Of a DNA stretch of 64,000 nucleotides, positions 5,002 through 60,872 are shown piece by piece. The notes under the pieces are model-generated. The model did no database searches. It saw only the letters and a list, made by a program, of their open reading frames with translations, and had not been told where the DNA came from. Origin of the DNA: an uncultured Candidatus Saccharibacteria bacterium. Lineage in GTDB: Bacteria > Patescibacteriota > Minisyncoccia > Phycocordibacterales > UBA2100. The stretch's first letter is position 1, and each line of letters starts with the position of its first letter. A program made the translations under genes and the position numbers. The DNA lies in NCBI GenBank assembly GCA_964512835.1, contig CAZELA010000002.1, forward strand, positions 28,603-92,602. The letters are read 5' to 3'.

Positions 5002-5586
5002 ATGGCAGACGAAACACAGCAGAATACGGACGGAGCACAGGCGGCAGTCGCAGAGCGACCGCAGCGCGGTGCACGAAACGACAATCGCGACCGACGTGGT
5101 GGTCCGGGGGCACGCGGTCCGCGCCGAGGCGGCAATCGCCCGGAGCGCGAACGCTCTGAGTTCGCACAGAAGATGATCGGTATCCGACGAGTAGCCCGAG
5201 TTATGGCAGGCGGACGACGATTCAACTTCTCGGTTGCGATCGTGATCGGGGACAAGAAGGGCCGAGTCGGTGTCGGTGTCGGTAAGGCGGCAGACACACA
5301 GCTCGCCATCGAAAAGGCGACTCGTGCGGCAAAGCGCCACATGATCAATCTGAACCTCACCAAGAACCGCTCGATCAAGCACAATGTCGAGGCAAAGTAC
5401 TGCGCATCGGTGGTCGAGATCCGACCGTCTCCGGGACGCGGACTCGTCGCAGGTTCATCGGTCCGTTCGGTCCTTGAAATGGCCGGTGTCTCGGACGTGA
5501 CGGCAAAATTGCTCTCACGATCGAAGAATCCGATCAACAATGCCCGTGCAGCCATCGCAGCACTCTCATCGGTCTCAATGAAATAA
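5002..5586 (+). CDS. rpsE: 30S ribosomal protein S5 with an Arg/Gly-rich N-terminal extension
   Basis: Core S5 region (IGIRRVARVMAGGRRFNFSVAIVIGDKKGRVGVGVGKA) preceded by an RGG-rich extension. Confidence 0.9.
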   Translation: MADETQQNTDGAQAAVAERPQRGARNDNRDRRGGPGARGPRRGGNRPERERSEFAQKMIGIRRVARVMAGGRRFNFSVAIVIGDKKGRVGVGVGKAADTQLAIEKATRAAKRHMINLNLTKNRSIKHNVEAKYCASVVEIRPSPGRGLVAGSSVRSVLEMAGVSDVTAKLLSRSKNPINNARAAIAALSSVSMK

Positions 5587-10066: not shown

Positions 10067-11353
10067 GTGGCAGACGGAAAGACCGATATTTTGATACTGG
10101 GGAGCGGGGCGCGAGAGCACGCGCTCGCATGGAAGCTCGCACAGTCTCCCCGCGTGGGGACTATCTACGCTGCACCCGGCAATGCCGGCACAGGTTCATT
10201 TTGTAAGAATGTCGACATTCCGGCGACGGACATCCCGCGCCTTGCGGATTTTGCACATCAGCATTCTATCGGTCTGACCGTCGTCGGGCCGGATGAACCG
10301 CTTGCCCTCGGCATAGTCGATCAGTTCAAACGCACCGGATTGCGTATCTTCGGTCCGACGAAAGCGGCCGCGCAGATCGAAAGCTCAAAGGCGTTCGCGA
10401 AGAAGCTGATGCATGAGGCGAAGATACCGACCGCGGCGTACAGCGTATTCACCGATGCGGTACAGGCACAAGGGTACGTGCAGGCCGGGCCGCTCCCGGT
10501 CGTAATCAAGGCAAGCGGTCTTGCGGCCGGCAAAGGCGTTGTCATTGCGCAGACGCATGAAGAGGCGCGTGCGGCGATTGACGACATCATGGTCAAACGC
10601 ATCTTCGGCGATGCCGGCACGTCGGTCGTCGTCGAGGAATTTCTGGAGGGAAATGAGATATCCGTCCATGTCATGACAGACGGCGTTAATTACGCGATAT
10701 TCCCGAGCTCTCAGGACCACAAGCGCATCGGCGAAGGGGACACCGGCAAGAATACCGGCGGCATGGGGGTCATTGCACCCGTGCCCTGGGTGAATTCAGA
10801 TATGATGCTTGCGATCGAGAAGACAATCATCCAACCGCTCATACGGGCCCTCGGTGATCGAGGCATACCGTACCAGGGGGTGCTGTTCCCCGGCATCATG
10901 ATGACGCCCGCAGGTCCGAAGGTTATAGAACTCAATGCGAGGTTCGGTGACCCGGAGTGCCAGACGTACATGCGTATGCTTAACAGCGACCTTATGGATC
11001 TGATCGACGAATGTGTCGACGGCGGCATCGGGACGCATATACCGCGCTGGGATACTGCGGGAACGGTCGGCGTCGTTCTTGCATCGCAGGGCTATCCGGA
11101 TGATTTCCAGACGGGGTTCAAGATAAGCGGCCTCAAGGAGGCGGGTATGAGCGAGAACGTCGTCGTATTCCATGCCGGAACCGTCGCAAACGACGGATTC
11201 TATACCGCCGGCGGTCGGGTACTCACCGTGACCGCGACGGGGTCACCGATCGCAAAAGCACAGGAGCTCGCCTATCGGGCCGTTGAAAAGATAACGTTCG
11301 AGAATAAGTACTACCGTCGCGATATCGGCCAGAAGTCGATTACCGCATCCTAG
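10067..11353 (+). CDS. purD: Phosphoribosylamine--glycine ligase
   Basis: ILILGSGAREHALAWKL N-terminus and an ATP-grasp core. 428 aa. Confidence 0.9.
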   Translation: MADGKTDILILGSGAREHALAWKLAQSPRVGTIYAAPGNAGTGSFCKNVDIPATDIPRLADFAHQHSIGLTVVGPDEPLALGIVDQFKRTGLRIFGPTKAAAQIESSKAFAKKLMHEAKIPTAAYSVFTDAVQAQGYVQAGPLPVVIKASGLAAGKGVVIAQTHEEARAAIDDIMVKRIFGDAGTSVVVEEFLEGNEISVHVMTDGVNYAIFPSSQDHKRIGEGDTGKNTGGMGVIAPVPWVNSDMMLAIEKTIIQPLIRALGDRGIPYQGVLFPGIMMTPAGPKVIELNARFGDPECQTYMRMLNSDLMDLIDECVDGGIGTHIPRWDTAGTVGVVLASQGYPDDFQTGFKISGLKEAGMSENVVVFHAGTVANDGFYTAGGRVLTVTATGSPIAKAQELAYRAVEKITFENKYYRRDIGQKSITAS

Positions 11354-11433
11354 TGTGCGCGGGATGTGCGTCCGATACACACTCGCACGATTACGAACAA
11401 GAGGGACCTGTCACCGCAAGGTATACTTTTTGT

Positions 11434-14241
11434 ATGGAACCGCGGATTCTCAGCGAGCGTATTACGCCGCGCAACAACACCGAGAAATTCAAATCTGCCG
11501 AAGAAGAGCTTGCATACCTGCGCGAGCAGGTGGCACAAAAAGAACGCGAGCTTTCTGTCCAGCCGGGATCGTTCGAAAAGGACCGTATTGCGAAGCGTGA
11601 GATCGCACAGTACGCCGATATTCCGTCTGCGAAGATCCTGCACGAGACCGTCGTCATGCCCGAGCACGAGACCATGCGACAGATCCTGAAGCTCGAGCCC
11701 GAGGCGCATGACAAGCAGCTCGACGGGCTTATTTCTATCGTAGAGACGCAGGGCGTAAAGAACGCGCTCTCGGTCGCCTCGAGGCTCAAGAATCCGCATC
11801 TGGAAGACGATTTTCATCGCCTCCTGGTGCGGTATGTCGCCGAAGGGTTGCCGGATAGCGGCACGGCAGTCGCAGAAAAAGTGAAGCGTGCACTCCACAT
11901 GGTGCTCTTCGAGGTTCGACCTCAGGCTCATGGCGAGAGCGGGGCAAAGGAATCAGGGCAGCAAAGGCTCGAGCACTTGCTCGCGCCGTCGGAGCAACTC
12001 TACGCAGGACTCCTCACGTTTATAGACGGTACGGAGGGATTTTCGCTCGAGATCGCCGTTCCGCAGGGATCCGAGAGCGCAACGCTCTACCTTGCGGTGC
12101 CGCGCGAAAAACGTACGCTCGCAGAACGGCTCATCACGTCGGTCTTTCCGAACGCGACAATTTCAGAGAGTCGCGGCGACTACAACATATTTGATTACGA
12201 GGGATCGCATGCCGCCTCGTATGCCGTGCTCGCGAAGCACCACGCGTTTCCCGTTAAGACTCCGGATATGTTTGAGCACGATCCCATGAACCTCGTGCTG
12301 GCGGCATTTGCCAAGATTGCGAAGCACGGGGAAGGTGCCGCCATCCAGTTGATCGTGGGATCCGAAGGGGATCGTTACAATCACTACTACAAGAAGGTTG
12401 TCCGCGAGCTCGAGAACGGCAAAGAGATCAACGAAGCGCTCAAGGTGCCGGAGACGGAGATTGGTGAGGCGCTGCGCGATGTGGCAAAACACATCTTCTC
12501 GTCATCGCACGAGACACATCAGTCTGCTCATGCGGTTGATAAGGTGGCAATGGACGAAATATCGCGAAAAATGCAGACCCGTGTTGCGCCTGTCGTGGTG
12601 CGTATCGTCGCATCAGCAAAAGTCCCCGCACGCGCGGATGAAATGCTCGCGAATCTCGAATCGGCGCTGAGCCAATTTGATAATCCGAAGGGAAACCATT
12701 TTGAGTTTGAGCGCGTCTCAAGCTGGGGGTTGAATTCGTTTTTGCATGACTACACTTTCCGCTCGTTCAATGCATCGATCGCGCAGCCGCTCTCGCTCGC
12801 CGAACTCAGTGCCATGTTCCATTTCACCGCTGAACGTGTGACGACGTCGCGCGAGCTGAAAAAGTCGCACGGTAAGCAGGCGCCGGCACCAGTCGATATG
12901 GGTACAGAAGGTATTGTGCTCGGAAAGAACCGCTATGGCGCGGATGAGAGCGAGATTCACTTTGCACCCGCAGATCGCCTGCGTCACTGCTACATAATCG
13001 GTCAGACCGGTACCGGTAAGACAGGCTTCATTACGAACATGATCCTGCAGGATATCCGGAACGGGGAAGGGGTCGCGTTCATTGACCCGCACGGGAGTGA
13101 TATTGAGAACATTCTGTCCGCCATACCGGAGGAACGAAAAAAGGACGTCATTTACTTTGACCCGGCGTATTCTGCGATGCCCATGGGGCTCAATATGCTT
13201 GAGTACGACACTTCGAAGCCCGAGATGAAGTCGTTTGTGATCGACGAGGTGTATGGCGTATTTCGCCAGCTTTACTCCGATGTGCCGGAGGCGTTCGGGC
13301 CGATGTTCGAACAGTACTACCGAAACGCGGTACAGCTCGTCGTCGAGGACCCGGCGACCGGCAGCACATTCGTAGAGATTCCCCGTGTATTCGCCGACAA
13401 AGCGTTCCGGGACCTCAAGATCTCCCGCTGCAACAATCCGATCGTCGTGCAATTTTGGCGGAAGATCGCAGAGGCGGCCGAGGGGGATGCGGGGCTCGAG
13501 AGTATTGCGCCATACATCACGAGTAAATTCGACGCCTTTCTTTCCCACGACATCATGCGACCGATCGTTGCGCAGGAGAAGTCCGCGTTTAACTTCCGCG
13601 AGATCATGGATGGAAAAAAGATATTCCTCGCAAACCTGTCGAAGGGGCGTCTTGGTGATAAGAATGCGGCCCTCCTGGGGCTCGTAATCGTGTCGAAGTT
13701 TTTGCAGGCCGCGTTCTCGCGTGCGGACACCCGCGAGGTGCTTCCGCCGCACTACCTGTACATCGATGAGTTCCAGAATTTCGTCACGCCGTCGATTTCG
13801 ACCATTCTCTCTGAGGCCCGAAAATACAAACTTTCACTTACGGTAGCGCACCAGTTCATGGCGCAGCTCGAAGACGAGATCCGTGATGCGGTCATCGGTA
13901 ACGTCGGTACAAAGATCGCGATGCGTGTCGGAACGACCGATGCGGAATTCCTCGAAAAGCAGTTTTTGCCCGAGTTCACCGCCAAAGATCTCGAGCAGCT
14001 CCCGAACCGTACCGGTGTTGCCGCGATGCTTGTGAACGGGGTGCCGGCAAAGCCATTTACGGTGGAGACCCTGCAATTGCCCGAATTCGATCACTCACAT
14101 CTCGAGGAGATTAAACAACAGTCATACGAGCGGTACGGTGTGCCGCGCGAAGCGGTCGAGGCCGAAATACGTCGCAAGTTCGGGTTCGGCACTCAGTCTG
14201 ACGCCCCGGTGCGGAGCCCTATTTCATCCCTCATGAATTAG
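11434..14241 (+). CDS. P-loop ATPase of the TraG/TraD/VirD4 (type IV coupling protein, FtsK-HerA superfamily) type with a roughly 500-aa uncharacterised N-terminal region
   Basis: Walker A YIIGQTGTGKTGF, Walker B LYIDEFQNF and a downstream AHQ motif lie in the C-terminal half. The N-terminal half has no recognisable motif. Start trimmed to Met28 (MEPRIL), which is preceded by a TATACT -10-like box. Confidence 0.55.
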   Translation: MEPRILSERITPRNNTEKFKSAEEELAYLREQVAQKERELSVQPGSFEKDRIAKREIAQYADIPSAKILHETVVMPEHETMRQILKLEPEAHDKQLDGLISIVETQGVKNALSVASRLKNPHLEDDFHRLLVRYVAEGLPDSGTAVAEKVKRALHMVLFEVRPQAHGESGAKESGQQRLEHLLAPSEQLYAGLLTFIDGTEGFSLEIAVPQGSESATLYLAVPREKRTLAERLITSVFPNATISESRGDYNIFDYEGSHAASYAVLAKHHAFPVKTPDMFEHDPMNLVLAAFAKIAKHGEGAAIQLIVGSEGDRYNHYYKKVVRELENGKEINEALKVPETEIGEALRDVAKHIFSSSHETHQSAHAVDKVAMDEISRKMQTRVAPVVVRIVASAKVPARADEMLANLESALSQFDNPKGNHFEFERVSSWGLNSFLHDYTFRSFNASIAQPLSLAELSAMFHFTAERVTTSRELKKSHGKQAPAPVDMGTEGIVLGKNRYGADESEIHFAPADRLRHCYIIGQTGTGKTGFITNMILQDIRNGEGVAFIDPHGSDIENILSAIPEERKKDVIYFDPAYSAMPMGLNMLEYDTSKPEMKSFVIDEVYGVFRQLYSDVPEAFGPMFEQYYRNAVQLVVEDPATGSTFVEIPRVFADKAFRDLKISRCNNPIVVQFWRKIAEAAEGDAGLESIAPYITSKFDAFLSHDIMRPIVAQEKSAFNFREIMDGKKIFLANLSKGRLGDKNAALLGLVIVSKFLQAAFSRADTREVLPPHYLYIDEFQNFVTPSISTILSEARKYKLSLTVAHQFMAQLEDEIRDAVIGNVGTKIAMRVGTTDAEFLEKQFLPEFTAKDLEQLPNRTGVAAMLVNGVPAKPFTVETLQLPEFDHSHLEEIKQQSYERYGVPREAVEAEIRRKFGFGTQSDAPVRSPISSLMN

Positions 14242-26484: not shown

Positions 26485-26865
26485 TCACACTCCGACCTGC
26501 ATTCGTTTGGCCCAATCGATGTAGAGCCACGCCACCCGGATGTCTTTGGCCGCTTTCCGTACGAAGCGTCGGTCCAACCGATCGTGCTCCCGCACGCGAG
26601 CGTTCCATAATCGATCGAAGTCGCCCGCGATGACGAGTGCATAAAAATGGTACGCCTCCATGTTGCCGCGTGTGTGATTGCACTTTTCACACGCAGCCAC
26701 AAGATTGTCCCACGTCGTTTCTCCGCCGAAGACCCGCGGTATCACATGATCGCGCGTGACGGATGTATCGCAGTGAATATCGAACGTCATGTGCACGGAG
26801 CAGTAGCAACAGCGATGGTTTTGCGCCTCGGAGAGGCGCATGAGCACGGCATCGACCTTGCGCAT
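26485..26865 (-). CDS. HNH endonuclease
   Basis: CCYC...H...DHVIPRVFGG...NLVAACEKCNHTRGN, a zinc-finger HNH motif. Confidence 0.7.
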   Translation of the reverse strand: MRKVDAVLMRLSEAQNHRCCYCSVHMTFDIHCDTSVTRDHVIPRVFGGETTWDNLVAACEKCNHTRGNMEAYHFYALVIAGDFDRLWNARVREHDRLDRRFVRKAAKDIRVAWLYIDWAKRMQVGV

Positions 26866-26962: not shown

Positions 26963-27313
26963 CTAGTCCCATTTGTACATCTCGTCCCGGATCTTCTTGA
27001 GTTCTGCGATGATCGCAGGGTCGGTAATGCGCACGAATCGCGGCACCGGTTTACCGTCGACGATCGCGGGTTCGTAGAACATCTGCAACGGGCGCACATC
27101 GATCATGCCGTGTTGATACACGAAGGCGGGGTAGAGCGGTCGGTAGACCTGCATGAACTGATCTTCCGGTCGGCAATCGTCTTCGGTGTGGCAACCGACG
27201 GCGTCGATGAAATACGCGTAGTTGTTGATCGGGCCGTTCGGGTCGTGTTTGTAGTGGTAGTAGTAGCCGCGTTCGGGCATCCGGGTCGGCGGTTGTAGAT
27301 CGCGTCCTGCCAT
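26963..27313 (-). CDS. Hypothetical protein
   Basis: 116 aa, Tyr/His-rich N-terminus. No family recognised. Confidence 0.3.
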   Translation of the reverse strand: MAGRDLQPPTRMPERGYYYHYKHDPNGPINNYAYFIDAVGCHTEDDCRPEDQFMQVYRPLYPAFVYQHGMIDVRPLQMFYEPAIVDGKPVPRFVRITDPAIIAELKKIRDEMYKWD

Positions 27314-27414: not shown

Positions 27415-28635
27415 ATGATCCTTCTCTCGCTTATTTCCTACGTCCTCGTACAGACGCTGGGGTTATTCATCGCATTCGCGGCAGCTGCGGTGCTTTTGTA
27501 TATGATTCTGCGGCGGTTTCATTCTCGAGCTATCACACTTACGTTGTGTGCGGTGTTCATCGGTATATCAATATTCTTTTACGTACCGAACGGTTTACCC
27601 AGCGGCTTTGAGTACGCCGCGTATCGCGCTACGTACGGACCCGCCGGAAAACCGTCCCTCCCATTCTGGAATGTCATCGCTTTCTTCCGGCACTTCAATG
27701 CATTTGAGCGTGTAGCTGATATCGCACACGACCCGAATCAGGTCGGAGAGCCGATCGCGCGGACCGCGACCAGCACCGTGCATGTCGACATTGTGGCAAA
27801 AGAAGTCATCTCTGAACTCGCGCCGGGTGTGTATCAGAATTTTTGGACCTACAACGGCACGGTGCCCGGCCCGATGGTGCGTGTGCGCGTAGGTGACACC
27901 GTCGTTGTAACGCTGAAGAACGATGAGTCGAGCCTCCACCCGCACACCATAGATTTCCACGCGGTCATCGGACCCGGAGGGGGAGCGGCGGTGCTGCTTG
28001 CGAATCCGGGCGAGACGAAAACGCTCACGTTCACCGCACTGCATCCGGGGCTGTTCGTATACCACTGCGCAGCGCAGAATCCTGCGGTGCACATGGCGCA
28101 TGGCCAGTACGGATTGATCCTTGTCGAACCGGAGACACCGTTGCCGCCGGTCGATCACGAGTACTACGTGATGCAGGGTGAGTTCTACACCACCGGAACG
28201 CTCGGCCAAAAAGGACTGCAAATATTCGATTCAAAAGCGATGCTCGACGGTATTCCGAATTACGTTGTGTTCAACGGCAGAACCGGCGCACTCGCCAAGA
28301 GTCTCAATGCGAAGTCAGGCGAAACCGTGCGCTTCTACGTGGGTAACGGCGGAGTAAATCTGATCTCGTCGTTCCACATCATCGGGACCGTGTTCGATCG
28401 CGTGTGGCAGGAAGGCTCGATCACAAGTCCGCCCGTCACCAACGTGCAAACAACACTCGTTCCGGCAGGTGGTTCAACAGTGGTTGACCTGACGCTGCGG
28501 GTACCGGGGAATTTTGTCCTCGTTGATCACGCGCTCGCGCGCGTAGACAAAGGTGCGTGGGGCGTGCTGCACGTCACCGGCGATCCTGAGCCCGGAGTAT
28601 TCCAGGGCCAAGCGCAGGAGATGAAAGGACACTAG
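27415..28635 (+). CDS. nirK: Copper-containing nitrite reductase (NirK, two-domain multicopper oxidase) with an N-terminal membrane anchor
   Basis: Two N-terminal transmembrane helices. Type 1 and type 2 copper-ligand motifs HTIDFHAV...GGG, LHPGLFVYHCA, HMAHGQYGLILVEP. Confidence 0.8.
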   Translation: MILLSLISYVLVQTLGLFIAFAAAAVLLYMILRRFHSRAITLTLCAVFIGISIFFYVPNGLPSGFEYAAYRATYGPAGKPSLPFWNVIAFFRHFNAFERVADIAHDPNQVGEPIARTATSTVHVDIVAKEVISELAPGVYQNFWTYNGTVPGPMVRVRVGDTVVVTLKNDESSLHPHTIDFHAVIGPGGGAAVLLANPGETKTLTFTALHPGLFVYHCAAQNPAVHMAHGQYGLILVEPETPLPPVDHEYYVMQGEFYTTGTLGQKGLQIFDSKAMLDGIPNYVVFNGRTGALAKSLNAKSGETVRFYVGNGGVNLISSFHIIGTVFDRVWQEGSITSPPVTNVQTTLVPAGGSTVVDLTLRVPGNFVLVDHALARVDKGAWGVLHVTGDPEPGVFQGQAQEMKGH

Positions 28636-29108: not shown

Positions 29109-29157
29109 CGTGTACTACGTGGCGCGCCTCACATTCCCGTCATTCGAATAACAGAAC

Positions 29158-29197
29158 AGCCCCGAAGCGATAGCTTCGGGGCTGACTATTTTTTGTG
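29158..29197. terminator. Bidirectional terminator shared by the small membrane gene and ssrA
   Basis: gccccgaagcgatagcttcggggc followed by tgactatttttt. Confidence 0.6.
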
Positions 29198-29585
29198 GAG
29201 GTGCGGGGAATTGAACCCCGGTCCAGAAAATGATTCACAGTCGTATCTACACGGCGTAGGGCATTCGATGTGTTTGAGTGCCGCGCGTTAAGAATGCACA
29301 AGATCGCGCAACACCGGACTCTCTTTCTTTAGGTCTGTGGTCGGAGTGAACCAAAGACCGGATCTGATGTTTATGACGTTCGGTAGCGCGCTATCAGATA
29401 CGCAACGCGCGAACGGTCGCCTGGCTTACGCGAGGACGAAGCCGAGATCCTTCATCTGAATCGGTGAAAGAGTCCCCCCTGCAGTTTTGTTTGCAGTTAG
29501 AATTTGGAACTTTTTAGGAAGTGTCCCACTTCCGCCATGCACAAAAGTAAACTGAATTTCCTGTCGAAGCCGATCACCCCCCACC
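29194..29585 (-). ncRNA. ssrA: tmRNA (SsrA)
   Basis: The reverse complement begins GGGGGGTGATCGGCTTCGACAGG and ends GGACCGGGGTTCAATTCCCCGCACCTCCACA, a tRNA-like 3' end with no encoded CCA. The internal tag reading frame ends ...QMKDLGFVLA-TAA. Adjacent to smpB. Confidence 0.8.
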
Positions 29586-29700
29586 CACGAGCATCTTGCG
29601 ATGCTCACGGGTGGGGACCGGTCGGAAACAGTGTTTGAGTATCGGAACGTGGCGCCGAGTCCCACACAGAGTGGGGGACTCGGCGATTCACTTGAATGAT

Positions 29701-30000
29701 CTATTTGCGCAGGTCGACGTACGGTCCGCGAAAGCGGTCGATTTCCATGTTCCTGCCGTTGGTCTTGTCGGCAACGGCAACAATGTCGTCGAACGACACC
29801 TCGTTGGTGAAGCTCTGATGACCGAAGCCGAAACACACGAGCGTCGAGCGCAATTTCTCGCACACACCGACGACCGATCCTTCATGGACGCGTCCGGTCA
29901 GCGGCTCGATGCCGTGTGACGTGTCGACATTGAACAGTACGTGCTTGCCGTTGAGGTACGCGGTGTTGAGCGCATTCTCGCGGGTAATCCTCTCGGACAT
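29701..30000 (-). CDS. Hypothetical protein
   Basis: 99 aa, no motif recognised. Confidence 0.3.
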   Translation of the reverse strand: MSERITRENALNTAYLNGKHVLFNVDTSHGIEPLTGRVHEGSVVGVCEKLRSTLVCFGFGHQSFTNEVSFDDIVAVADKTNGRNMEIDRFRGPYVDLRK

Positions 30001-30046: not shown

Positions 30047-30493
30047 TTATGATTCTTTTTTCAAAGAGCGGCGCATCCTGATGTCTTCCTCGCGCTTTTG
30101 AATCGTCTGCCGTTTATCTCCGTGCTTCTTGCCACGGGCGATCGCGATGGAGAGCTTCAAGTTACGTCCTTTATTATACACTGAAAGTGGTACCACTGTC
30201 AAACCTTTTTCGGATTCAGCGCCGCGAATATGGTCGATTTCTTTGCTGTTCAAGAGCAATCGGCGTGATCGCTCGGCGTCATACGTCTTCGGAGCGTTAG
30301 CCGGCTGCCACGCAGGGATGGTCGCGCCCACCAAGTACGCTTCGCCGCCGCGCGCCACAACGCGCGAACCCTTGAGCGAGCCCAAACCCGCGCGCAGCGA
30401 GCGGACTTCGTATCCGAACAATTCCAAGCCGGCCTCGATAGTTTCGAGGATCTGGTAGTCGAATCCGACGCGTTTATTCTCTATCAGCGACAT
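30047..30493 (-). CDS. smpB: SsrA-binding protein SmpB
   Basis: Start trimmed to MSLIENKRVGFDYQILE. GYEVRSLRAG...LVGATI, and a basic C-terminal tail. Confidence 0.85.
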   Translation of the reverse strand: MSLIENKRVGFDYQILETIEAGLELFGYEVRSLRAGLGSLKGSRVVARGGEAYLVGATIPAWQPANAPKTYDAERSRRLLLNSKEIDHIRGAESEKGLTVVPLSVYNKGRNLKLSIAIARGKKHGDKRQTIQKREEDIRMRRSLKKES

Positions 30494-30597
30494 CCGCATA
30501 CTATATAGTACGGAGGTCCAAAAAGACCACTTGGGGGCGTGTGAGCCCGAGGTCATATTTCTTTCATAAAGGGCTCGTTACTGTATACTCTCCCGAT

Positions 30598-40735: not shown

Positions 40736-41848
40736 ATGAAATTCGGCGTCCGCGTCATTATCGCGTCGATACTCCTTGCGCCGGTGTTCGCGAGTGCGCA
40801 GTCGACGAGCGACCTCACGTCTCAGGCAGAAACGCTTTTGAAACAGATACAACAGCTCCAGGCGCAGCTTGGCGGCGGTAGTGCAACGGGCGGAGTGGCC
40901 GGTGCGTGTTATAGCGGCGGTCCGCTCAAGCCGGGTGCAAGCGGTGCGTCCGTATCCGCATTGCAACAATTTCTCGCAGCAGATCCCTCGGTGTATCCCG
41001 AGGCAAAAGTGACCGGCTACTATGGCGCACTCACACAAAAGGCCGTGCAGCGCTTTCAGGTAAAGAACGACATCGTTACATCCGGAACTCCGTCAACCAC
41101 CGGCTACGGGTCTGTCGGGCCGCGTACCGTTGCGGTCATGGCGGCAGCCTGCGGGGGAGCGTCCGACTCATCGGGGGATCCCGTCGTCGGCGGATTCATT
41201 AAAGTGTCACCCGTCGAAGGAAGCGCCCCGCTTACGGTGAATGTGGAGGTGACGATCAATACCGTCAAATCATGCCTGCCCGCTACGTACTCGCTCTCGT
41301 GGGGAGATAATTCACTCCCGTTCACCATCTCGGTACCGGCCGGCAAGTGCGATGTTGTCGCACAAACGTACACGCATCTCTACACGCTCGGAGGTGAATA
41401 CAACGTCACGCTCTCCTCGGGTCAGCATCAAACGACTTCAAAGGTTACCGTTTCGGGTAACGGATCGATCATGACCTCGGGCACGATGGACACGAATTTT
41501 GCGGGCGGTAGTGCGTCCACAGGGGGATCGACGACAGGAGGATCGTCTACGGGCGGTTCGTCCACCGGCGGACAGGTTGTCTCGGGCGCACTCGCTATTT
41601 CAATGAGCAGTAACTCTTTCTCGCCCGGCAACATAACGGTTACGAGCGGTACGCGGGTTACCTGGACTAATACCGACTCGATGCCGCACACCGTGACCGC
41701 AGACAACGGCAGCTATAACAGCGGGGCAATGTCTCCGGGACAGACGTATGCCCTCACGTTCACGGCAAAGGGCGAATACACCTATTATTGTGCGATCCAC
41801 GGTGCAAAAGGCGGTATCGGCATGTCCGGCAAAATTACCGTTCAGTAA
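40736..41848 (+). CDS. Secreted protein with an N-terminal peptidoglycan-binding (PG_binding_1-like) domain and a C-terminal type-1 copper cupredoxin (plastocyanin/azurin-like) domain
   Basis: Signal peptide MKFGVRVIIASILLAPVFASA. PG-binding region LKPGASGASVSALQQFLAAD...GYYGALTQKAVQRFQ. C-terminal copper ligands MPHTV ... YYCAIHGAKGGIGM. Confidence 0.65.
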   Translation: MKFGVRVIIASILLAPVFASAQSTSDLTSQAETLLKQIQQLQAQLGGGSATGGVAGACYSGGPLKPGASGASVSALQQFLAADPSVYPEAKVTGYYGALTQKAVQRFQVKNDIVTSGTPSTTGYGSVGPRTVAVMAAACGGASDSSGDPVVGGFIKVSPVEGSAPLTVNVEVTINTVKSCLPATYSLSWGDNSLPFTISVPAGKCDVVAQTYTHLYTLGGEYNVTLSSGQHQTTSKVTVSGNGSIMTSGTMDTNFAGGSASTGGSTTGGSSTGGSSTGGQVVSGALAISMSSNSFSPGNITVTSGTRVTWTNTDSMPHTVTADNGSYNSGAMSPGQTYALTFTAKGEYTYYCAIHGAKGGIGMSGKITVQ

Positions 41849-41956
41849 AACGTCTTCGTGAAGGGCGCTGTGCTATCCCCATCGACGAAATGGGTGTTTC
41901 AAGTCGCCCGTGCGACGATGAACGTATATTTATTCGAATCAGGAAGCTTTTTATCT

Positions 41957-44900
41957 ATGCGAAATCTCTATAAGACCATTGCAGTAATCGCGCTGCTCCT
42001 CTCTCCGACTGTTGTAACCGCACAAACGGTCGACGTGAGCGCACTACTTGCGCAGATCAAAGCATTGCAGGCGCAGATCGCGACGGCCGCCGGCGGGAGC
42101 ACGAACGCACCTGCAACCACGCCGTCGCAGGGAAGCGGCGGAAATTGCGTCCAGCTTGATACGAATCTCCAAAAGGGTGATTCGGGTGACGACGTGAAAG
42201 ATCTGCAGAACTTCCTCATTGCAGAAGGTCTTCTTGATTCGAACGCGACCGGGTTCTTCGGTACGCTCTCCGAAACAGCCGTCAAAGAATGGCAAGGCTC
42301 GCACGGCATCACGCCGCTCGGCATCGTTGGTCCCGCGACCCGTGCTGCGATGGCAAACTGCGGCGGCATATCGAACTCATCCTCAGGGCCGACCATCGTC
42401 TCGAATCAGTGCCCGGTCATTCAAAAGCCTGCTAACTGCGAAAACGCAGTATCGGTCCAGCTCAACGGGTGTACCGTCGGCTGGCAGTGTTCCGTCGCCC
42501 AGCTTCCTGTCGAAACATTCTCCGCAACACCGACAACCGGTCCTGTTCCGCTTGTGGTCCGCTTTTCCGGCGTCGTGACCAGTGCGGATGCCGGCTTCTG
42601 CAAGGGCAACTTCTGCGCTGCGACGCTCGTGTTCGGAGACGGTACGACCGGCGCGGTGCCGCTGCCGAATACCGAGGGCGCGAGTGTGACCTACCAGGTC
42701 AATCACACCTATCAGACAGGCGGAAACTACGTTGCTAACTTGTATCAGGGTGCCGCAGGCAGCGGTGCGCCTCTTGTCGGTAACGGCATTACGATCACGC
42801 CGATCGCGAAACCGGTCGTCGTGCCCACAGGGCCTGCGATCTCGGTCACACCGAATTTCGGCAATGCGCCGCTTCCGGTCACAATCAATGTCACAGGCGT
42901 CACGTCTGCACTTAATTTGTCCGTCGAATTCGGAGACGGCACATTCTCGAGTGTTCAACCGATGGGAAGTAGCTTCGGTGTGACGCACACGTACACCGGC
43001 TCGGGATCGTTCACTGCAAAACTCCGCCGCACGAACGGAACGGGTGATACCTGCGTAAGTGCGCAGTGCCCGATTCTCTCGTCGGCTGCGGTCTCGGTGA
43101 CCGGCGGTCAGGCTGCGTCGGCATCGCTCGTCGCAAATCCGGCCATCGGTCTTGCGCCGCTTCCGGTCACGTTCTTCCTCAACGGCGCGAGCGCATCGTA
43201 TCCCGGGGGTGTCATTCTTGATTTTGGAGACGGCACGACCGAGATGGTCTGCTTGGCGAATGCGTTGTGCGCACAAAAAACGACGACGCACACCTATGCG
43301 ACGGCAGGCACGTTTAACGTGCAGCTTGTTGCGCAAAGCGCAGGCGGTACAACCATCCTGAAAACGGCAACAGTTACGGCGAGCTCGCAGCAGGCGACAG
43401 CGCTTACGGTGTCACCTGCGTCCGGCCCTGCGCCGCTCGATGTAACCTTCACGGCGCATGGCGGTAACCAGCTCTACGTGAACGGCGTCATTCTCAAATA
43501 TGGTGACGGCACGAGCGAAACATTCTGTAACCCGAATGAGCTGTGCGGACAAAAGACAAAGACACACAAGTACACGGACGGCTCTCAGTTCAGTGCGCAG
43601 CTCATCGGCCTGAACGCCGGCTCCGCAAGTACGACGATCGGCACCGCGTCGGTAAACGTGACAGGCGGTCCGTCGAAGATCAAGGTAACCGGCCCGACGG
43701 GTGTCATTCGCAAAGGGGAGTCCGCTTCGATTTCGTGGCAGATCCTGGGTACGAAGCCGAACTCCGGCACGATCTCATTCGATCTCTACACACAGGCGGG
43801 TACCCGCGTCGGAACGATTCTCGCAATCACCAACTACTCGAGCGGTAGCGCAACATGGAAAGTCCCGAGTTCGGCAGACAAGAACTGCTCCGCAACACAG
43901 CCGAACGGTCTGTGCGGTGTGCTCTTGCAGCCGGGCATGTATCGCATCACTGCGAGTGCGTCGAATATGTCGACGAATCCCGAGATCTCCTCTGAGGCGA
44001 CCTTCGAGATCAAGGACGAGATCGTGCAGCCGGGCGGATTCACCATCTCGATCACGCCGTCTTCCGGTGAGCCAGGTAAGCCGATGTCGATTAAGTACCG
44101 CGTCGCGAACCCGCCGGCGAATTCCGGTGTAGCGCTCTGGATGGTACGACCCGACGGAAGCAACGCAGCGCTCATTTCGGGCCGACTCGAGGCGGATAAA
44201 GAACAGAGCACATTCCCATGGGAAGCGGGCGCAACCCAAAACTGCGTCGCCGCGCTCTTCAATCCGAATATCGTGTGCAATCAGTCGCTTGCGCCGATCG
44301 CCACGGGCACCTTCCACATCCTGGGTAAGGTGTATGCACCGTTTGACGGAAAGTACATCGATGACTCTGCGGTGACCATTCACGCGGTCGCAACAAGTAC
44401 TGCGTTCACGATCAAAACCCCCGGAACCGGTTCATCCTGTGTCGTTCTGACATCCAACCTTGGCCCGGGCGACACCGATGCAACGACCGGAGGCGATGTG
44501 AGCGTTCTGCAGAAGTTCCTTGCCGAAGACAGCGAGATCTATCCGGAGGGCATCGTGAATGGTGTATACGGTAATGCGACGCGCCGCGCGGTTGAAAGAC
44601 TCCAGGCATCGAAGGGTATCGTGTCGTCGGGTTCCCCCGAGACGAACGGATACGGTGCGGTCGGTCCGTCCACGCGCGCTGCGATTGCTGCAAGCTGCAC
44701 ATCGAATGCGTCGTATCTTTTTACGGCAACGCCGCTCACCGGCCGTCAGCCGCTTCAGGTAACATTCAGCGCCAAGATACCGACAACTGCAGATACGTAC
44801 TACAACGTCGACTTCGGTGACGGCACGAGCGGTCCGCTTGATCAGACGGTCGGATCCAACAAGACCGCGAAACACACGTACACAACGACCGGCACCTACA

Positions 44901-46315
44901 TCGCGCGCCTCTTGGTGCAGCGTGTCGTGTGCAGCTCCGAGACGAACTGTGTTTCGGATCCGGCGATCAACGGCGGAACAGTGACGGTGAAGGTAACGAA
45001 CATCAATACGCCTCCTCCGCAGTCATGTGCAGATATTACACATACGCTCGGCAGCGAAGATAAGGACGCGACTACCGGCGGTGATGTATCGCGACTGCAG
45101 CAGTTCCTGGCCGCGAACCCCGCGTTCTATCCTGAGGGATTGGTGACGGGCTTCTTCGGCACAGCGACATCAAAAGCGGTCGGACGATACCAGGCAGCCA
45201 ACGGCATTAGCCAGACAGGCACTGTCGGTCCGGTCACGCTTGCCGCAATGCAGTGTAAGAAGACACCTACGAACGACGGTCCGCTTGTTGCCACGCCGTC
45301 AGACGGTACGGCACCACTCTCCGTCCGCTTCACCACCAATAAGGCCGTAGCTACCGGAAGCTACCGCATCAACTTCGGCGACGGTCAGTCACAGTGGCTT
45401 ACCGCATCATCCGTAACGCATATCTATCCGGCAGCCGGTTCGTACACTGCAGAATTGGTGCAGTCGATCGGTAACTGCTTCGGTCTGCCGCAGGATGCGC
45501 TCGAAATCTGCGAGATCGGGTATGCGACGGTGATCGCAACAAAGACCATTACCGTGGCGCAGCAGGCAACACTGTCCGTCTATGTGGCACCCGCAAGCCT
45601 GGCCAACGGTGCAAATCTGGCAGTCACATGGTCTACGACGAATGCGCCGGCAAATTCCAAAGTCCGTCTCGAGGTGTACCGTGATGGTGCGACCGAGGCG
45701 ACAAGCAATAACGACCAGGGTATCGCGGCAGACGCATCCGCGCTCGGCGTGAACGGTACGTACAACTGGACGACACCGTCTGCAACCCGACCGATCGTTG
45801 CCGACGCGGGTCACGGAGGATTTGCGCTCTCACCGGGTACCTACCACATTACTGCGCGTCTCTACACGGGAGACACATGCTGGGGCTACTGTGCGACGGT
45901 GCCGACACGCACGGTCAATGCGATTGCAAAATCGACGAGCTTCACGGTCACTCAGGGAACCGGAGGCACCGGGAGTACCGGTGGCGGAGCGGTCGCGGGA
46001 CAGGTGAAGTGTGACAACAATACCGAGGCGTGGGACGAAAAGATTGTGCTTACATTCCAGAATGCTGCAACTGCGGAGTACAAGTTCCCGATCGGGAATC
46101 CGCACCAGACCATCCAGGCAGACTTCCCGGCGGCCCCGATTTCGGGAACAACCTACCACGGCGTCGCGAACTTCCTCGACTGGCAGCCGAACACGCAGCG
46201 CATCGCAGGTCAGACATCGAAAAGTCTGACCATCCAGTCGCAAAATACTGCGACCGGATTGATGGCAGGGTATCTCCAGTACAACGACTTCACGTGTGTT
46301 GTGACCTGGAACTAA
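41957..46315 (+). CDS. Giant (1453 aa) secreted cell-surface protein with three peptidoglycan-binding domains and at least six PKD-like repeats
   Basis: Signal peptide MRNLYKTIAVIALLLSPTVVTAQT. Its N-terminal module is homologous to the preceding gene. PKD signature (V/L/I)xFGDGT occurs six times. Three PG-binding-like segments (LQNFLIAEGLL, LQKFLAEDSEIYPEG, LQQFLAANPAFYPEG). Confidence 0.65.
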   Translation: MRNLYKTIAVIALLLSPTVVTAQTVDVSALLAQIKALQAQIATAAGGSTNAPATTPSQGSGGNCVQLDTNLQKGDSGDDVKDLQNFLIAEGLLDSNATGFFGTLSETAVKEWQGSHGITPLGIVGPATRAAMANCGGISNSSSGPTIVSNQCPVIQKPANCENAVSVQLNGCTVGWQCSVAQLPVETFSATPTTGPVPLVVRFSGVVTSADAGFCKGNFCAATLVFGDGTTGAVPLPNTEGASVTYQVNHTYQTGGNYVANLYQGAAGSGAPLVGNGITITPIAKPVVVPTGPAISVTPNFGNAPLPVTINVTGVTSALNLSVEFGDGTFSSVQPMGSSFGVTHTYTGSGSFTAKLRRTNGTGDTCVSAQCPILSSAAVSVTGGQAASASLVANPAIGLAPLPVTFFLNGASASYPGGVILDFGDGTTEMVCLANALCAQKTTTHTYATAGTFNVQLVAQSAGGTTILKTATVTASSQQATALTVSPASGPAPLDVTFTAHGGNQLYVNGVILKYGDGTSETFCNPNELCGQKTKTHKYTDGSQFSAQLIGLNAGSASTTIGTASVNVTGGPSKIKVTGPTGVIRKGESASISWQILGTKPNSGTISFDLYTQAGTRVGTILAITNYSSGSATWKVPSSADKNCSATQPNGLCGVLLQPGMYRITASASNMSTNPEISSEATFEIKDEIVQPGGFTISITPSSGEPGKPMSIKYRVANPPANSGVALWMVRPDGSNAALISGRLEADKEQSTFPWEAGATQNCVAALFNPNIVCNQSLAPIATGTFHILGKVYAPFDGKYIDDSAVTIHAVATSTAFTIKTPGTGSSCVVLTSNLGPGDTDATTGGDVSVLQKFLAEDSEIYPEGIVNGVYGNATRRAVERLQASKGIVSSGSPETNGYGAVGPSTRAAIAASCTSNASYLFTATPLTGRQPLQVTFSAKIPTTADTYYNVDFGDGTSGPLDQTVGSNKTAKHTYTTTGTYIARLLVQRVVCSSETNCVSDPAINGGTVTVKVTNINTPPPQSCADITHTLGSEDKDATTGGDVSRLQQFLAANPAFYPEGLVTGFFGTATSKAVGRYQAANGISQTGTVGPVTLAAMQCKKTPTNDGPLVATPSDGTAPLSVRFTTNKAVATGSYRINFGDGQSQWLTASSVTHIYPAAGSYTAELVQSIGNCFGLPQDALEICEIGYATVIATKTITVAQQATLSVYVAPASLANGANLAVTWSTTNAPANSKVRLEVYRDGATEATSNNDQGIAADASALGVNGTYNWTTPSATRPIVADAGHGGFALSPGTYHITARLYTGDTCWGYCATVPTRTVNAIAKSTSFTVTQGTGGTGSTGGGAVAGQVKCDNNTEAWDEKIVLTFQNAATAEYKFPIGNPHQTIQADFPAAPISGTTYHGVANFLDWQPNTQRIAGQTSKSLTIQSQNTATGLMAGYLQYNDFTCVVTWN

Positions 46316-49173: not shown

Positions 49174-49560
49174 TTACGAAAGAATGCGTTCGACCTCGGC
49201 AACGAGCTGCGAGGGAAGGTGATCCGATTTGAGCAGGTACGCATCCGCCCCGAGTTCGGCAACGCGTGTAATGACCCCGTCGGCACCTGCATTCGTGAGC
49301 GCGATCATTCGTGCGCCCGGGGCAAGGTGTTCCTGTTTGATGGTCTCGAGGAACTCGAAGCCGCTCTTGCCGTCGGGCATGGTTATGTCAAACAGGATCG
49401 CGTCGGGTCTGATACCGCTTCGAAGTGCCGTAAGCGCGGTGTCGGCATCGCGGCATGTCACAACAACAAAGCCTGCCTGTTCGAAGGCGAGGCGGTACAT
49501 ATCGAGCAGGAACCGTTCGTCGTCGAGCATGAGAACCGTCTTTTTGGTCGGGGAATCCAT
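49174..49560 (-). CDS. Single-domain response regulator (CheY-like receiver)
   Basis: LMLDDE...D(phospho-acceptor)...T...K spacing. Paralog of the genes at 50065 and 62574. Confidence 0.75.
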   Translation of the reverse strand: MDSPTKKTVLMLDDERFLLDMYRLAFEQAGFVVVTCRDADTALTALRSGIRPDAILFDITMPDGKSGFEFLETIKQEHLAPGARMIALTNAGADGVITRVAELGADAYLLKSDHLPSQLVAEVERILS

Positions 49561-49648
49561 ATAGAAACGATACCCTGCAAATGAGGGCCTGGGGAGTATG
49601 ACGTGATTCCGCACGGTGGACATGGTAAGGTAGAGCGCGTACCAAAAC

Positions 49649-49735
49649 GGAGAGGTGCCAGAGCGGTCGAATGGAGCACACTGCTAATGTGTTGAGCGGG
49701 AAACCGTTCCGAGGGTTCGAATCCCTCCCTCTCCG
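49649..49735 (+). tRNA. tRNA-Ser (anticodon GCU), long variable arm, no encoded CCA
   Basis: GGAGAGG acceptor, 3-bp D-stem, anticodon loop CTGCTAA, variable arm TGAGCGGGAAACCGTTCC, T-arm GAGGGTTCGAATCCCTC. Confidence 0.8.
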
Positions 49736-50486: not shown

Positions 50487-51407
50487 ATGTGGCAATTGCG
50501 AGTGATAAACTTGAACAAAATGAAACCGGCCCCATTCGTTGCTTCAGTAGTGCTCCTCGTTGCCGGGGTCGTCATGTACCTACTCACGCGCGGCGCCGAT
50601 ATCCCTGTCTTACATCCGTCGGGTCCGATAGCCCTCGCGGAGTATCGCGTGATCCTTGTTACATTCCTCCTTTCCGCGCTCATCATCGTGCCCGTTTTCT
50701 TTTTGCTGTTCTTTTTTTCGTGGCGATATCGGGCCCAAGGTCCGGATACACAGAAACATCATCATCCGACCTGGGATCATGAGAACGCAGCCGTCGAATT
50801 TCTCTGGTGGCTTATACCGGCAGGGATCATCGGCGTCCTGTCGGTCGTCGCATGGCAGAGTTCGCATGCGCTTGATCCATATGTGCGTATACCGGGGGAA
50901 CGCACAGTCGAGGTGCAGGTCGTGGCTCTGCAGTGGAAGTGGTTGTTCATATATCCCGAACTCGGTCTCGCATCGGTCAATGAGCTTGTTATTCCGGTAG
51001 GAACGCCGGTTCATTTTTCGCTCACCGGGGATGCGCCGATCAATTCTTTTTGGATACCCAGTCTCGGCGGACAGATCATGGTCATGCAGGGTATGCAGAC
51101 GCAGCTGAACCTGCTTGCTTCAGAGGCGGGCACGTTCGAGGGGTGGTCGGGTAATCTCTCCGGCAGGGGATTTTCAAAGATGATGTTCAAGGTGCGAGCG
51201 CTTCCGACGGATCAATACGAATCCTGGGTTGAGCGGGCGCAGCACGACACGACCACTCCGCTGAACGCGGAAAACTACGTGTCGCTTTCCGCGCCGACTG
51301 AGGGACATTCCGTTACGTATTATTATCCGGTGGATCCTGACTTGTATACTTCGATCCATACCAAATACATGAGCGCGCCGGTCGCTGAGCATAGTCATTC
51401 GATATGA
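50487..51407 (+). CDS. cyoA: Quinol oxidase subunit II (CyoA-like; the CuA ligand Cys residues are absent)
   Basis: Signal or transmembrane N-terminus. The region ELVIPVGTPVHFSLTGDAPINSFWIPSLGGQIMVMQGMQTQLNL resembles the E. coli CyoA core. No CxExC CuA motif. Start may be the Met at 50520. Confidence 0.75.
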   Translation: MWQLRVINLNKMKPAPFVASVVLLVAGVVMYLLTRGADIPVLHPSGPIALAEYRVILVTFLLSALIIVPVFFLLFFFSWRYRAQGPDTQKHHHPTWDHENAAVEFLWWLIPAGIIGVLSVVAWQSSHALDPYVRIPGERTVEVQVVALQWKWLFIYPELGLASVNELVIPVGTPVHFSLTGDAPINSFWIPSLGGQIMVMQGMQTQLNLLASEAGTFEGWSGNLSGRGFSKMMFKVRALPTDQYESWVERAQHDTTTPLNAENYVSLSAPTEGHSVTYYYPVDPDLYTSIHTKYMSAPVAEHSHSI

Positions 51408-53371: not shown

Positions 53372-53952
53372 GTACGACACCGGTGCACACGGACGGACAC
53401 GAGGATCGTACGAGTTTGTACGGATTCTGGATATACCTGATGACGGATTTCATGCTGTTTGCAGCACTATTTTCCGTATTCATTGTGCTGCGGGGCAACA
53501 TTTTTGCATCCGGTCCTGGTGTGTTCTTTGATCTGCGGTCAGTGCTAGCTGAAACGCTCATACTCCTCACGAGTTCGTTCACATGCGGTCTGTTCTTATT
53601 GAGTGCTCGGGCAGGGCACGACCGTGCGGTCCTTACATGGATGTACATCACGGTTCTTCTCGGCGCGGCGTTCTTGTGTATCGAGATCGCCGAGTTCCGC
53701 GACCTCATCAATGCGGGCATGGGTCCGCAGTCGAGCGGGTTTTTCTCCGCGTTCTTTACGTTGGTCGGGACCCACGGTCTGCATATTCTCGCCGGTCTCA
53801 TTTGGATGGTGTCGCTCGCGGCAGCGATCGTACAGCGCGGACTCACGCCATCGAACATGCGTAAGCTTGTTCTGTTGAGTATGTTCTGGCACTTCCTTGA
53901 TATCGTCTGGATATTCATTTTCACTATCGTGTATCTCATCGCGATCGTATGA
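53368..53952 (+). CDS. cyoC: Quinol oxidase subunit III
   Basis: Start MSTTPVHTDGHEDRTSLYGFWIYLMTDFMLFAALF. Five transmembrane helices. ATGA overlap with cyoB. Confidence 0.8.
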   Translation: MSTTPVHTDGHEDRTSLYGFWIYLMTDFMLFAALFSVFIVLRGNIFASGPGVFFDLRSVLAETLILLTSSFTCGLFLLSARAGHDRAVLTWMYITVLLGAAFLCIEIAEFRDLINAGMGPQSSGFFSAFFTLVGTHGLHILAGLIWMVSLAAAIVQRGLTPSNMRKLVLLSMFWHFLDIVWIFIFTIVYLIAIV

Positions 53953-54341
53953 CAAACCACAAAGACTATTTCGGAGAGGTGGGAGTATGGCACAAGGGTG
54001 CGCGGCATCTTGAGCGTACCTATGTGCTCGGATTTCTGTTTTCGCTGATCCTTACGCTTACCGCGTACACCGTCAGCGTGTACCACATCGTCCCGAAGAC
54101 CGTACTCATTCCGATGCTGCTTGTTCTCGCCTGTCTGCAGTTCATGACCCAAGTGCTCGGGTTTCTCCATGTGAGCGGCGCTCCGGCATCACGGGATCGG
54201 TTGATAGCGCTTCTATACTGCACGGTGCTCGCGCTCGTTCTCGTTGTGGGCTCCATGTGGATCATGATGAATCTGCAGTCACGCATGATGACCGACGCCG
54301 GCACGCAGGAACGCTACATGATGAAAGAGCGGGGTATATAA
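53949..54341 (+). CDS. cyoD: Quinol oxidase subunit IV
   Basis: 130 aa, three transmembrane segments. Position in the operon. Confidence 0.65.
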   Translation: MTNHKDYFGEVGVWHKGARHLERTYVLGFLFSLILTLTAYTVSVYHIVPKTVLIPMLLVLACLQFMTQVLGFLHVSGAPASRDRLIALLYCTVLALVLVVGSMWIMMNLQSRMMTDAGTQERYMMKERGI

Positions 54342-54343
54342 CT

Positions 54344-59189: not shown

Positions 59190-59192
59190 CGT

Positions 59193-59909: not shown

Positions 59910-59911
59910 AT

Positions 59912-60481
59912 ATGGCTAAAACGATCATTTCATTCGTAGGAATCATTGCCGCCTTCGGTATATTCTTCTTTTATACAAAGCCGACCTATGATTCCGCGCA
60001 GGGGGAGCGTGCAAAGATCGCCGAGTACGACGCCGCACTCGTGAAGGCAAACGAGCTCCAGGAACGCAAACAAGCACTCCTGAAAAAGTACAACGACTTC
60101 TCTCCGGAAGATAAAGACCGACTTCAGAAGTTGCTTCCGGATCACGTAGACAACGTGCGCCTCATTCTGGATCTCGACAATATCGCTTCGCGTCGCGGCA
60201 TGGCCATGCAGAACGTCGTCGTTTCGACGCCGGGCGCAGGTCAGACGGCGCAGACTGCGGTCGGTACCATCAGCTCTTCAAAGCAGAAGTACGACGTGCT
60301 TACGACGAAGTTCTCCACCACGGGCACCTATACACAGTTCCAGCAGCTGATAACCGATCTGGAAACCTCGCTTCGTATCGTCGATATTTCAACGCTCAAG
60401 GTCTCGAAGAACGATCTGTACTCGAACGGTGAACCGCTGTTCTCCTACGAGGTGAGCTTACGCACGTACTGGCTGAAATAA
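59912..60481 (+). CDS. pilO: Type IV pilus assembly protein PilO-like
   Basis: Single N-terminal transmembrane segment followed by a coiled-coil. Operon position. Confidence 0.55.
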   Translation: MAKTIISFVGIIAAFGIFFFYTKPTYDSAQGERAKIAEYDAALVKANELQERKQALLKKYNDFSPEDKDRLQKLLPDHVDNVRLILDLDNIASRRGMAMQNVVVSTPGAGQTAQTAVGTISSSKQKYDVLTTKFSTTGTYTQFQQLITDLETSLRIVDISTLKVSKNDLYSNGEPLFSYEVSLRTYWLK

Positions 60482-60483
60482 TT

Positions 60484-60867: not shown

Positions 60868-60872
60868 CGCGT

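Follow-up and report, generated by a model that had tools for sequence, protein, structure and literature searches.

The stretch of DNA analysed here (the window, 64,000 nucleotides) contains, at positions 27415–28635 of the forward strand, an open reading frame that begins with ATG and encodes a protein of 406 amino acids, with the stop codon lying within these coordinates. The protein passed the curated NirK equivalog model TIGR02376, scoring 307.1 bits (cutoff 296.3) in a match that spans residues 100–400, and Pfam assigned only generic multicopper-oxidase domains to its core, namely Cu-oxidase_3, Cu-oxidase_2 and Cu-oxidase. Pfam, the ligand columns and Foldseek delimit a catalytic core of two cupredoxin domains at residues 101–406 (27715–28635, forward strand). 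Its best solved relative was 6THE, the core of the four-domain NiR of Bradyrhizobium ORS375 (E = 1.2e-96), and further matches in the PDB were the cores of RpNiR, HdNiR and AniA, the E values of all four lying between 1e-96 and 1e-88. We built an AlphaFold2 model of the monomer on 65 homologues (pTM 0.75), with pLDDT mostly 85–98 in the core and below 50 at residues 1–11 and 58–83. Foldseek aligned the modelled core to 6THE over 299 columns, with a TM-score of 0.91 normalised to the target. Sequence identity was 45–51% over residues about 100–400 for 6THE, RpNiR (3ZIY, Ralstonia pickettii), Neisseria AniA (1KBV) and Hyphomicrobium HdNiR (2DV6), all of which share the fold (TM-scores of 0.85–0.91 normalised to the target), the type-2 copper, AspCAT and HisCAT. 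Since the classical class I enzymes AxNiR and AcNiR are only 27–31% identical to the protein, we group it with the AniA/RpNiR-type cores. An identical protein was called on 14 contigs. No Shine-Dalgarno sequence was evident before the ATG, a scan for promoters and terminators gave a match count not above the shuffled expectation, and Rfam found nothing associated with nirK, its sole matches being a tmRNA and two tRNAs.

We mapped the copper ligands through HMMER alignment to 6THE and 6QPT, together with MAFFT alignments, and read each ligand column in a set of 121 sequences comprising the protein itself and the 120 closest 90%-identity clusters. The type-1 copper is liganded by His177, Cys218 and His226, with Gln231 in the axial position, and the type-2 copper by the His triad H182, H217 and H372, the last of which would be contributed by the neighbouring subunit. 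AspCAT is D180, HisCAT is H321 and IleCAT is Ile323. H177, D180, H182, H217, C218, H321 and H372 were invariant in 121 of the 121 sequences, H226 was present in 120 (the sole exception has Met in place of this second type-1 His) and I323 in 119; the same residues, H226 and I323 included, were kept in all 79 loci examined. The type-2 triad, whose absence on full alignment had been named as grounds for rejecting the gene, is thus complete. The initial annotation had described the copper-ligand motifs as canonical, and this holds for the type-2 triad and for the His, Cys and His of the type-1 site, which lie in the motifs HPHTIDFHAV (starting at residue 175), FVYHCA (residue 214) and HMAHGQYG (residue 226). 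The third of these is, however, non-canonical, because the axial position is occupied by Gln231 instead of Met. Where 6THE and RpNiR read H-I-A-N-G-M-Y-G, the protein reads H-M-A-H-G-Q-Y-G, and the axial Met and the Asn at the +3 position that are common to 6THE, RpNiR, AniA and HdNiR are replaced by Gln231 and His229. Judged from its sequence, 27415–28635 is a genuine and intact nirK, and the gene is native to a CPR genome.

The axial Gln is encoded by a CAG codon at 28105–28107 (forward strand), as read from the codon itself and from the ligand column. Of the 121 sequences, 103 have Gln in this column and the remaining 18 have Met. Among species-representative genomes, Gln was found only in L007–L010, at 72–90% identity to our protein. 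The deeper CPR NirKs (57–61% identity) carry axial Met, with one Leu, and the 61 non-CPR relatives carry Met (57 sequences) or Leu (4 sequences). In a neighbour-joining tree of core residues 105–397 from 136 CPR and 61 non-CPR sequences, the 104 CPR sequences with Gln, many of them from independent sequence clusters, fell into one subclade with zero exceptions, at identities to our protein down to 66%. The confinement of Gln to a single clade of this size and depth argues that the residue has been kept by selection. A wider census of 150 representatives of 50%-identity clusters, taken from 1.84 billion proteins, was dominated by Met (137), with Gln and Leu at 5 each, Ala at 2 and Thr at 1; among the Gln cases, P0128 reached furthest into the N-terminal region of our protein, and has a hydrophobic N-terminus of its own. 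To go from the ATG of Met to the CAG or CAA of Gln takes two substitutions; Leu, encoded by TTG in L021, is a conceivable intermediate. Four residues, V165, F181, L194 and A196, co-vary with the Gln clade, and F181 sits in the sensing loop between AspCAT and the type-2 His. The pattern in the sequences fits a single ancient replacement by Gln that was selectively retained.

A natural His2-Cys-Gln type-1 copper was first described in TsNirK of Thermus scotoductus SA-01 (6HBE; Opperman et al., 2019, PMC6400189), an active enzyme, which indicates that an axial Met is not strictly defining for NirK. No other natural NirK of characterised structure shares this type-1 site with our protein. Unlike our protein, however, it has SerCAT, ValCAT, a Cys-to-His spacing of 10 and an extra C-terminal cupredoxin domain, whereas the CPR protein has Asp180 in the H-T-I-D-F-H loop, Ile, a spacing of 8, and ends at residue 406 without an extra domain. 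On account of these differences, we regard the Gln of the CPR protein as independent of that of TsNirK, and the protein as not of the TsNirK type. In the literature on Gln-ligated natural NirKs, in which the papers on CPR were covered by their main text, we found the TsNirK paper alone and no later report. The Gln-ligated clade thus appears not to have been described before, and constitutes a modest addition.

The region that precedes the catalytic core consists of a predicted membrane hairpin (residues 1–64; 27415–27606, forward strand), delimited by hydropathy, AlphaFold2 and conservation, and a conserved linker (residues 65–100; 27607–27714, forward strand), recognised by its invariant residues and by an AlphaFold2 helix at 83–94. 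Kyte-Doolittle analysis showed two hydrophobic segments, at about residues 1–35 and 37–62, and AlphaFold2 placed helices at about 2–33 (TM1) and 38–64 (TM2) with a turn of four residues between them. Across 65 homologues, G16, A20, A24, F48, G50, P58 and P62 were invariant in the hairpin, as were Y74, G75, P76, L82, P83, F84 and F90 in the linker, which bears the motifs YGP (74–76) and LPF (82–84). The mean frequency of the major residue was 0.66–0.76 in the N-terminal region, compared to 0.81 in the core. Conservation of the hairpin at the protein level extended to every CPR homologue, including those of only about 57% identity, in agreement with the earlier assignment of two N-terminal transmembrane helices in place of a cleavable signal peptide. 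Full-length matches came from Patescibacteria MAGs only, and proteins from other phyla matched from about residue 97 onwards. In the non-CPR homologues the core follows an ordinary leader of the signal or lipoprotein type, and extra cytochrome or cupredoxin domains are found in many of them; in the solved relatives 6THE, RpNiR, AniA and HdNiR, either a lipid anchor or a fused cytochrome c or cupredoxin domain takes the place of the hairpin. The query peptides that served as search patterns for relatives included FWNVIAFF. A search for the membrane module on other proteins, with residues 1–110 as the query, collected just 14 candidates, returned 2 short fragments and missed even the full-length family, and therefore carries no weight. 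All positive charges of the hairpin lie in the loop between the helices, R33-R34-F-H-S-R38 (RRFHSR). Positively charged loops lie on the cytoplasmic side of the membrane (the positive-inside rule), which suggests that both termini of the hairpin, and hence the catalytic domain, would be outside the cell.

The genome that carries this gene is of a Kaiserbacteria-like CPR/Patescibacteria type. In the ribosomal protein cluster S8-L6-L18-S5-L15-SecY, S5 (5002–5586) is followed directly by L15 (5589–6023), and no L30 gene lies between them. A missing L30 is a hallmark of the CPR. Together with the type IV pilus genes, and with homologues that bear Kaiserbacteria, Paceibacterota or Parcubacteria names (these being the few named homologues of NirK and of the cupredoxin described below), this bears out the CPR-like character assigned to the genome earlier. 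The window also encodes a 1485-residue PG-binding/PKD protein and an Nramp protein, and tmRNA and SmpB lie just downstream of nirK.

Two further features of the window had been linked to nirK, and both are present. The first is a secreted protein of 370 amino acids at 40736–41848 (forward strand; alternative start 40589), which has a signal peptide, a PG_binding_1 domain (PF01471) and a C-terminal plastocyanin-like domain (PF00127) with a His/Cys/His/Met site, and corresponds to the wall-tethered cupredoxin noted previously. An identical protein is labelled ‘plastocyanin’ by JGI, the family includes proteins with Kaiserbacteria names, and it is conserved in the same lineages as nirK. The second is a cyoABCDE-like operon for a haem-copper quinol oxidase at 50487–55192 (forward strand), with COX2 and COX_ARM, COX1, COX3, COX4_pro and UbiA domains in Pfam and a complete cyoABCDE gene order, which would fit the bo3 oxidase assigned earlier. 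CyoA (242.5 bits against 266.2) and CyoB (989.8 against 1020.35) were the best NCBIfam matches, both slightly below their cutoffs. The longest contig listed for each of NirK, CyoB and the cupredoxin was 377,295 bp. We compared the ORFs of 18 CPR loci with 28 genes of the window, and found no gene consistently adjacent to nirK across the 18; neighbours were common only to the nearest relatives, L007 and L009. This lack of a shared neighbourhood indicates that nirK is a stand-alone gene and not part of a functional cluster. Within the 64 kb window, we found no cupredoxin-reducing enzyme, complex III, NDH or NO reductase.

The presence of nirK in such genomes has been published. Danczak et al. 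(2017, Microbiome 5:112; PMC5581439) reported nirK in Kaiserbacteria and Harrisonbacteria bins, each with a cupredoxin, stated that the copper ligands were conserved, and discussed roles in detoxification, symbiosis and the proton-motive force. A later study (Adv Sci 2025; PMC12931201) found nirK in >140 MAGs from >50 Patescibacteriota lineages, and reported a plastocyanin-like donor and the absence of complex III; a cupredoxin was found in every nirK-bearing CPR bin of the two studies. Further papers note that CPR bacteria carry nirK and genes for cytochrome o oxidase, and describe these organisms as adapted to oxic conditions. The gene at 27415–28635 resembles the CPR NirK clade of PMC5581439 and PMC12931201 in its family, its Kaiserbacteria-type lineage, its stand-alone position, the co-occurring cupredoxin and the lack of complex III, and one of our loci (L018) comes from a genome of genus C7867-001, which is named in PMC12931201. 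The gene is therefore not rare, and its central point was already in print. The initial annotation, right on the identity of the gene, overstated both its rarity, in holding that nirK had only occasionally been reported in such lineages, and the firmness of the copper-based electron sink. The main text of PMC5581439 and PMC12931201 mentions neither a transmembrane anchor nor a substitution of the axial ligand, and the conserved hairpin, like the Gln clade, appears not to have been described before; it too is a modest addition. The 136 CPR NirKs were monophyletic against the 61 non-CPR relatives in the neighbour-joining tree. This monophyly agrees with the separate CPR clade of Danczak et al. 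(2017; PMC5581439).

Taken together, the locus is best explained as encoding a functional, NO-forming NirK of the CPR clade that is anchored by a hairpin, fed by a cupredoxin, tuned by an axial Gln and vertically inherited, and we consider this reading likely as a whole. The uncleaved helical hairpin would hold the enzyme on the outer face of the cytoplasmic membrane, with the N-terminus outside, the RRFHSR loop inside and the catalytic domain outside, an arrangement that would suit a cell without a periplasm. From what is known of the family and from the predicted topology, the enzyme would form the usual homotrimer, tethered by six helices per trimer. An electron would enter at the type-1 copper (His177, Cys218, His226 and axial Gln231) and cross the Cys218-His217 bridge to reach the type-2 copper (His182, His217 and His372 of the neighbour), where nitrite would be reduced to NO with protons delivered via Asp180 and His321. 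The wall-bound plastocyanin-like protein, whose gene lies 12 kb downstream, is most likely the immediate donor; we infer this role from the co-occurrence of the two proteins in the literature and from the contig that they share.

An axial Gln makes a type-1 copper site more tetrahedral and lowers its reduction potential. Such a ligand is present in plant stellacyanins and in the Met150Gln mutant of AcNiR that Kataoka et al. reportedly engineered in 2003. The mutant is a product of the laboratory and the stellacyanins are single-domain plant proteins, whereas the Gln of the CPR clade is natural, stably inherited and accompanied by co-varying residues. By analogy with the stellacyanins and with Met-to-Gln mutants, Gln231 most likely creates a stellacyanin-like site and lowers the potential of the type-1 copper. 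A lower potential would make the step from type-1 to type-2 copper more favourable and would suit a lower-potential supply of electrons, which in turn fits an organism whose lineage is reported to be without complex III. If Gln does lower the potential, the cupredoxin with its His/Cys/His/Met site may be a thermodynamically poor donor. The physiological role is most likely that of an electron sink that does not conserve energy, or nitrite removal, and consumption of the NO would depend on a partner organism. Of the copper-based extracytoplasmic electron sink suggested earlier, the pairing of NirK with the cupredoxin is plausible, and had already been proposed. The link to the bo3 oxidase found no support, given the lack of synteny and of a cupredoxin reductase in the window. 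The Cyo enzyme is a quinol-oxidising O2 reductase.

Several other explanations were weighed against this one. Translation from an internal Met30 would turn the N-terminus into a classical signal peptide (MILRRFHSR and the hydrophobic stretch that follows), yielding a secreted protein or one anchored by a single helix. Met30, the RRFHSR motif and the hydrophobic stretch do resemble a signal peptide, and a clear ribosome-binding site is absent before either ATG, but residues 1–32 are conserved at the protein level down to 57% identity, which rules this form out, and we accord it very little probability. In most homologues the ORF starts at the position corresponding to residue 1, and relatives show Ile, Leu or Val in place of Met30; as the internal Met is not conserved, we take the long form to be the one translated. 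The possibility that nirK came from mis-binning, a chimeric assembly or a very recent transfer from a denitrifier might draw on an HNH endonuclease gene about 550 bp upstream, whose codon usage is atypical, and on a short contig (L002) in which a foreign cyo operon adjoins the nirK block. L002 was rejected as evidence of a linkage between nirK and cyo, for its cyoC, cyoD and cyoE are only 33–55% identical to those of the window and the join is intergenic; the contig is either chimeric or a strain variant. Against such an origin, five independent contigs from other samples or assemblies (L001 and L003–L006) were 99.9–100% identical to and collinear with the window over 18000–38635. The GC content was even along the window (0.53–0.59), and both the GC of nirK (0.568, z = +0.21) and its GC3 (0.666, z = −0.26) lay within 0.3 sd of the window genes; its codon usage correlated with that of the other 31 genes at 0.79, a mid-to-high rank. 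A discontinuity in GC of the kind that would betray mis-binning was therefore not seen, and collinearity and composition effectively refute chimerism and recent transfer. The nearest non-CPR sequences are 50–56% identical and have no N-terminal module, and the CPR clade is monophyletic. We consider a foreign origin barely conceivable, and nirK would instead have been inherited vertically within Paceibacteria, with no recent acquisition.

A role other than nitrite reduction, either as an oxidase that reduces O2 or in copper handling, might be read from the generic multicopper-oxidase domains that are all that Pfam shows, and would not be out of place in an organism that has an O2 reductase and belongs to a group described as oxic-adapted. 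This is highly improbable, however: the protein passed the TIGR02376 equivalog, AspCAT, HisCAT and the mononuclear type-2 triad are invariant and IleCAT nearly so (119 of 121), the His pairs that form the trinuclear cluster of true multicopper oxidases are absent from the protein, and the Gln-bearing TsNirK reduces nitrite (PMC6400189). A further alternative concerns the source of electrons. The Gln-bearing NirK could be fed by a route of lower potential, for example through a partner in the membrane that binds the hairpin and linker, in which case the N-terminal module would be the point of electron input. [quoted passage not shown] The hairpin, however, has no conserved ligands for a redox cofactor, the conservation of Gly and Ala in its helices fits simple helix packing, and no candidate partner was found beside nirK. 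Moreover, the anchor is also present in the deeper CPR NirKs that have axial Met, indicating that anchor and Gln are not coupled. We regard such a docking route as unlikely, and retain the cupredoxin-fed, hairpin-anchored NirK as the preferred reading.

As nirK together with a cupredoxin is already established in Parcubacteria and Kaiserbacteria, the preferred reading adds little to the biology of the CPR. A more far-reaching proposal, which we think rather improbable, is that the Kaiserbacteria-type NirKs form a natural, species-rich lineage of two-domain enzymes, canonical in their other catalytic residues, whose stellacyanin-like His2-Cys-Gln type-1 site is tuned low for an unconventional, complex III-free chain, with the donor docking on the hairpin and linker. 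If true, this would make them a distinct respiratory or electron-disposal module of the CPR, beyond an anchored copy of an ordinary NirK. The two-helix anchor would explain how a cell without a periplasm keeps an enzyme that is normally periplasmic. The clade of 104 Gln sequences, in which AspCAT is kept, offers a natural series for the tuning of the axial ligand in NirK, and the Met-bearing sister sequences and the one Leu-bearing sequence in the same clade would aid such a comparison. The Gln clade also sharpens the question of where NirK draws its electrons in CPR cells that are without complex III.

In the copper nitrite reductase NirK (window 27415–28635, + strand), His229 (window 28099–28101), three residues beyond the second histidine ligand of the type-1 copper, is invariant within the CPR (Patescibacteria-type) clade, whereas other NirKs mostly carry Asn at this +3 position. 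Four further residues, V165, F181, L194 and A196, change in step with the switch from Met to Gln at the type-1 copper axial position, and F181 lies within the sensing loop. The C-terminal dipeptide, Gly405-His406 (window 28627–28632), is invariant in 65 CPR NirKs, and Gly-His is likewise present at the aligned position of 6THE, the solved four-domain nitrite reductase of Bradyrhizobium ORS375. Conservation of this dipeptide hints that the C-terminal His serves a function that has been retained.

Directly upstream of nirK are two genes on the minus strand, encoding an HNH endonuclease (window 26485–26865) and a DUF1653 protein (window 26963–27313). Codon usage was tested for 32 genes, and that of the HNH gene was the most atypical (r = 0.47). 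This gene is also missing from the other CPR nirK loci and may therefore be a mobile insertion. A nirK block identical to that of the window, matching it from 24580 onward, was present on L002, a 7-kb contig from a different sample. Here, a different cyoC/D/E set (L002:1–2566; GC 0.595) lies directly upstream of the block, joining it exactly after the dinB stop codon, and its proteins share 33–55% identity with their counterparts in the window. Either the L002 contig is a chimera, or it comes from a strain whose gene content differs.

Downstream of nirK, by ∼560 bp, a tmRNA (window 29193–29581, − strand; 128 bits) adjoins smpB (window 30047–30556, − strand). A bidirectional, GC-rich, terminator-like hairpin of 12 bp (window 29157–29184) separates the tmRNA from a gene for a 73-aa protein. 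ORFs called at window 29426–30000, which overlap or flank the tmRNA, are probably spurious.

CyoA and CyoB (window 50487–53371, + strand) matched cytochrome o ubiquinol oxidase models best, scoring just under the equivalog cutoffs (242.5 against 266.2 bits for CyoA, and 989.8 against 1020.35 bits for CyoB). Judged by these scores, the predicted product is a divergent bo3-type oxidase, in a lineage for which quinone synthesis is not expected. Just upstream of the operon are a tRNA (window 49649–49735, + strand) and a stand-alone response-regulator receiver protein (window 49174–49623, − strand), with no partner kinase seen nearby.

A 962-aa protein (window 11353–14241, + strand) with weak matches to TraG/TrwB coupling proteins and HerA-like ATPases could be a component of type IV secretion or DNA transfer. 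A type IV pilus assembly cluster (window 58047–62570, + strand) encodes PilM, a PilO-like protein and a PilB/T2SSE ATPase; such clusters are typical of episymbiotic CPR bacteria.

The wall-binding cupredoxin gene (window 40736–41848, + strand) is immediately followed by that of a 1485-aa protein with PG_binding_1 and PKD domains (window 41858–46315). Many cupredoxin homologues, of 450–650 aa, have PKD domains fused into one chain, and domain content is thus variable within the wall-binding cupredoxin family.
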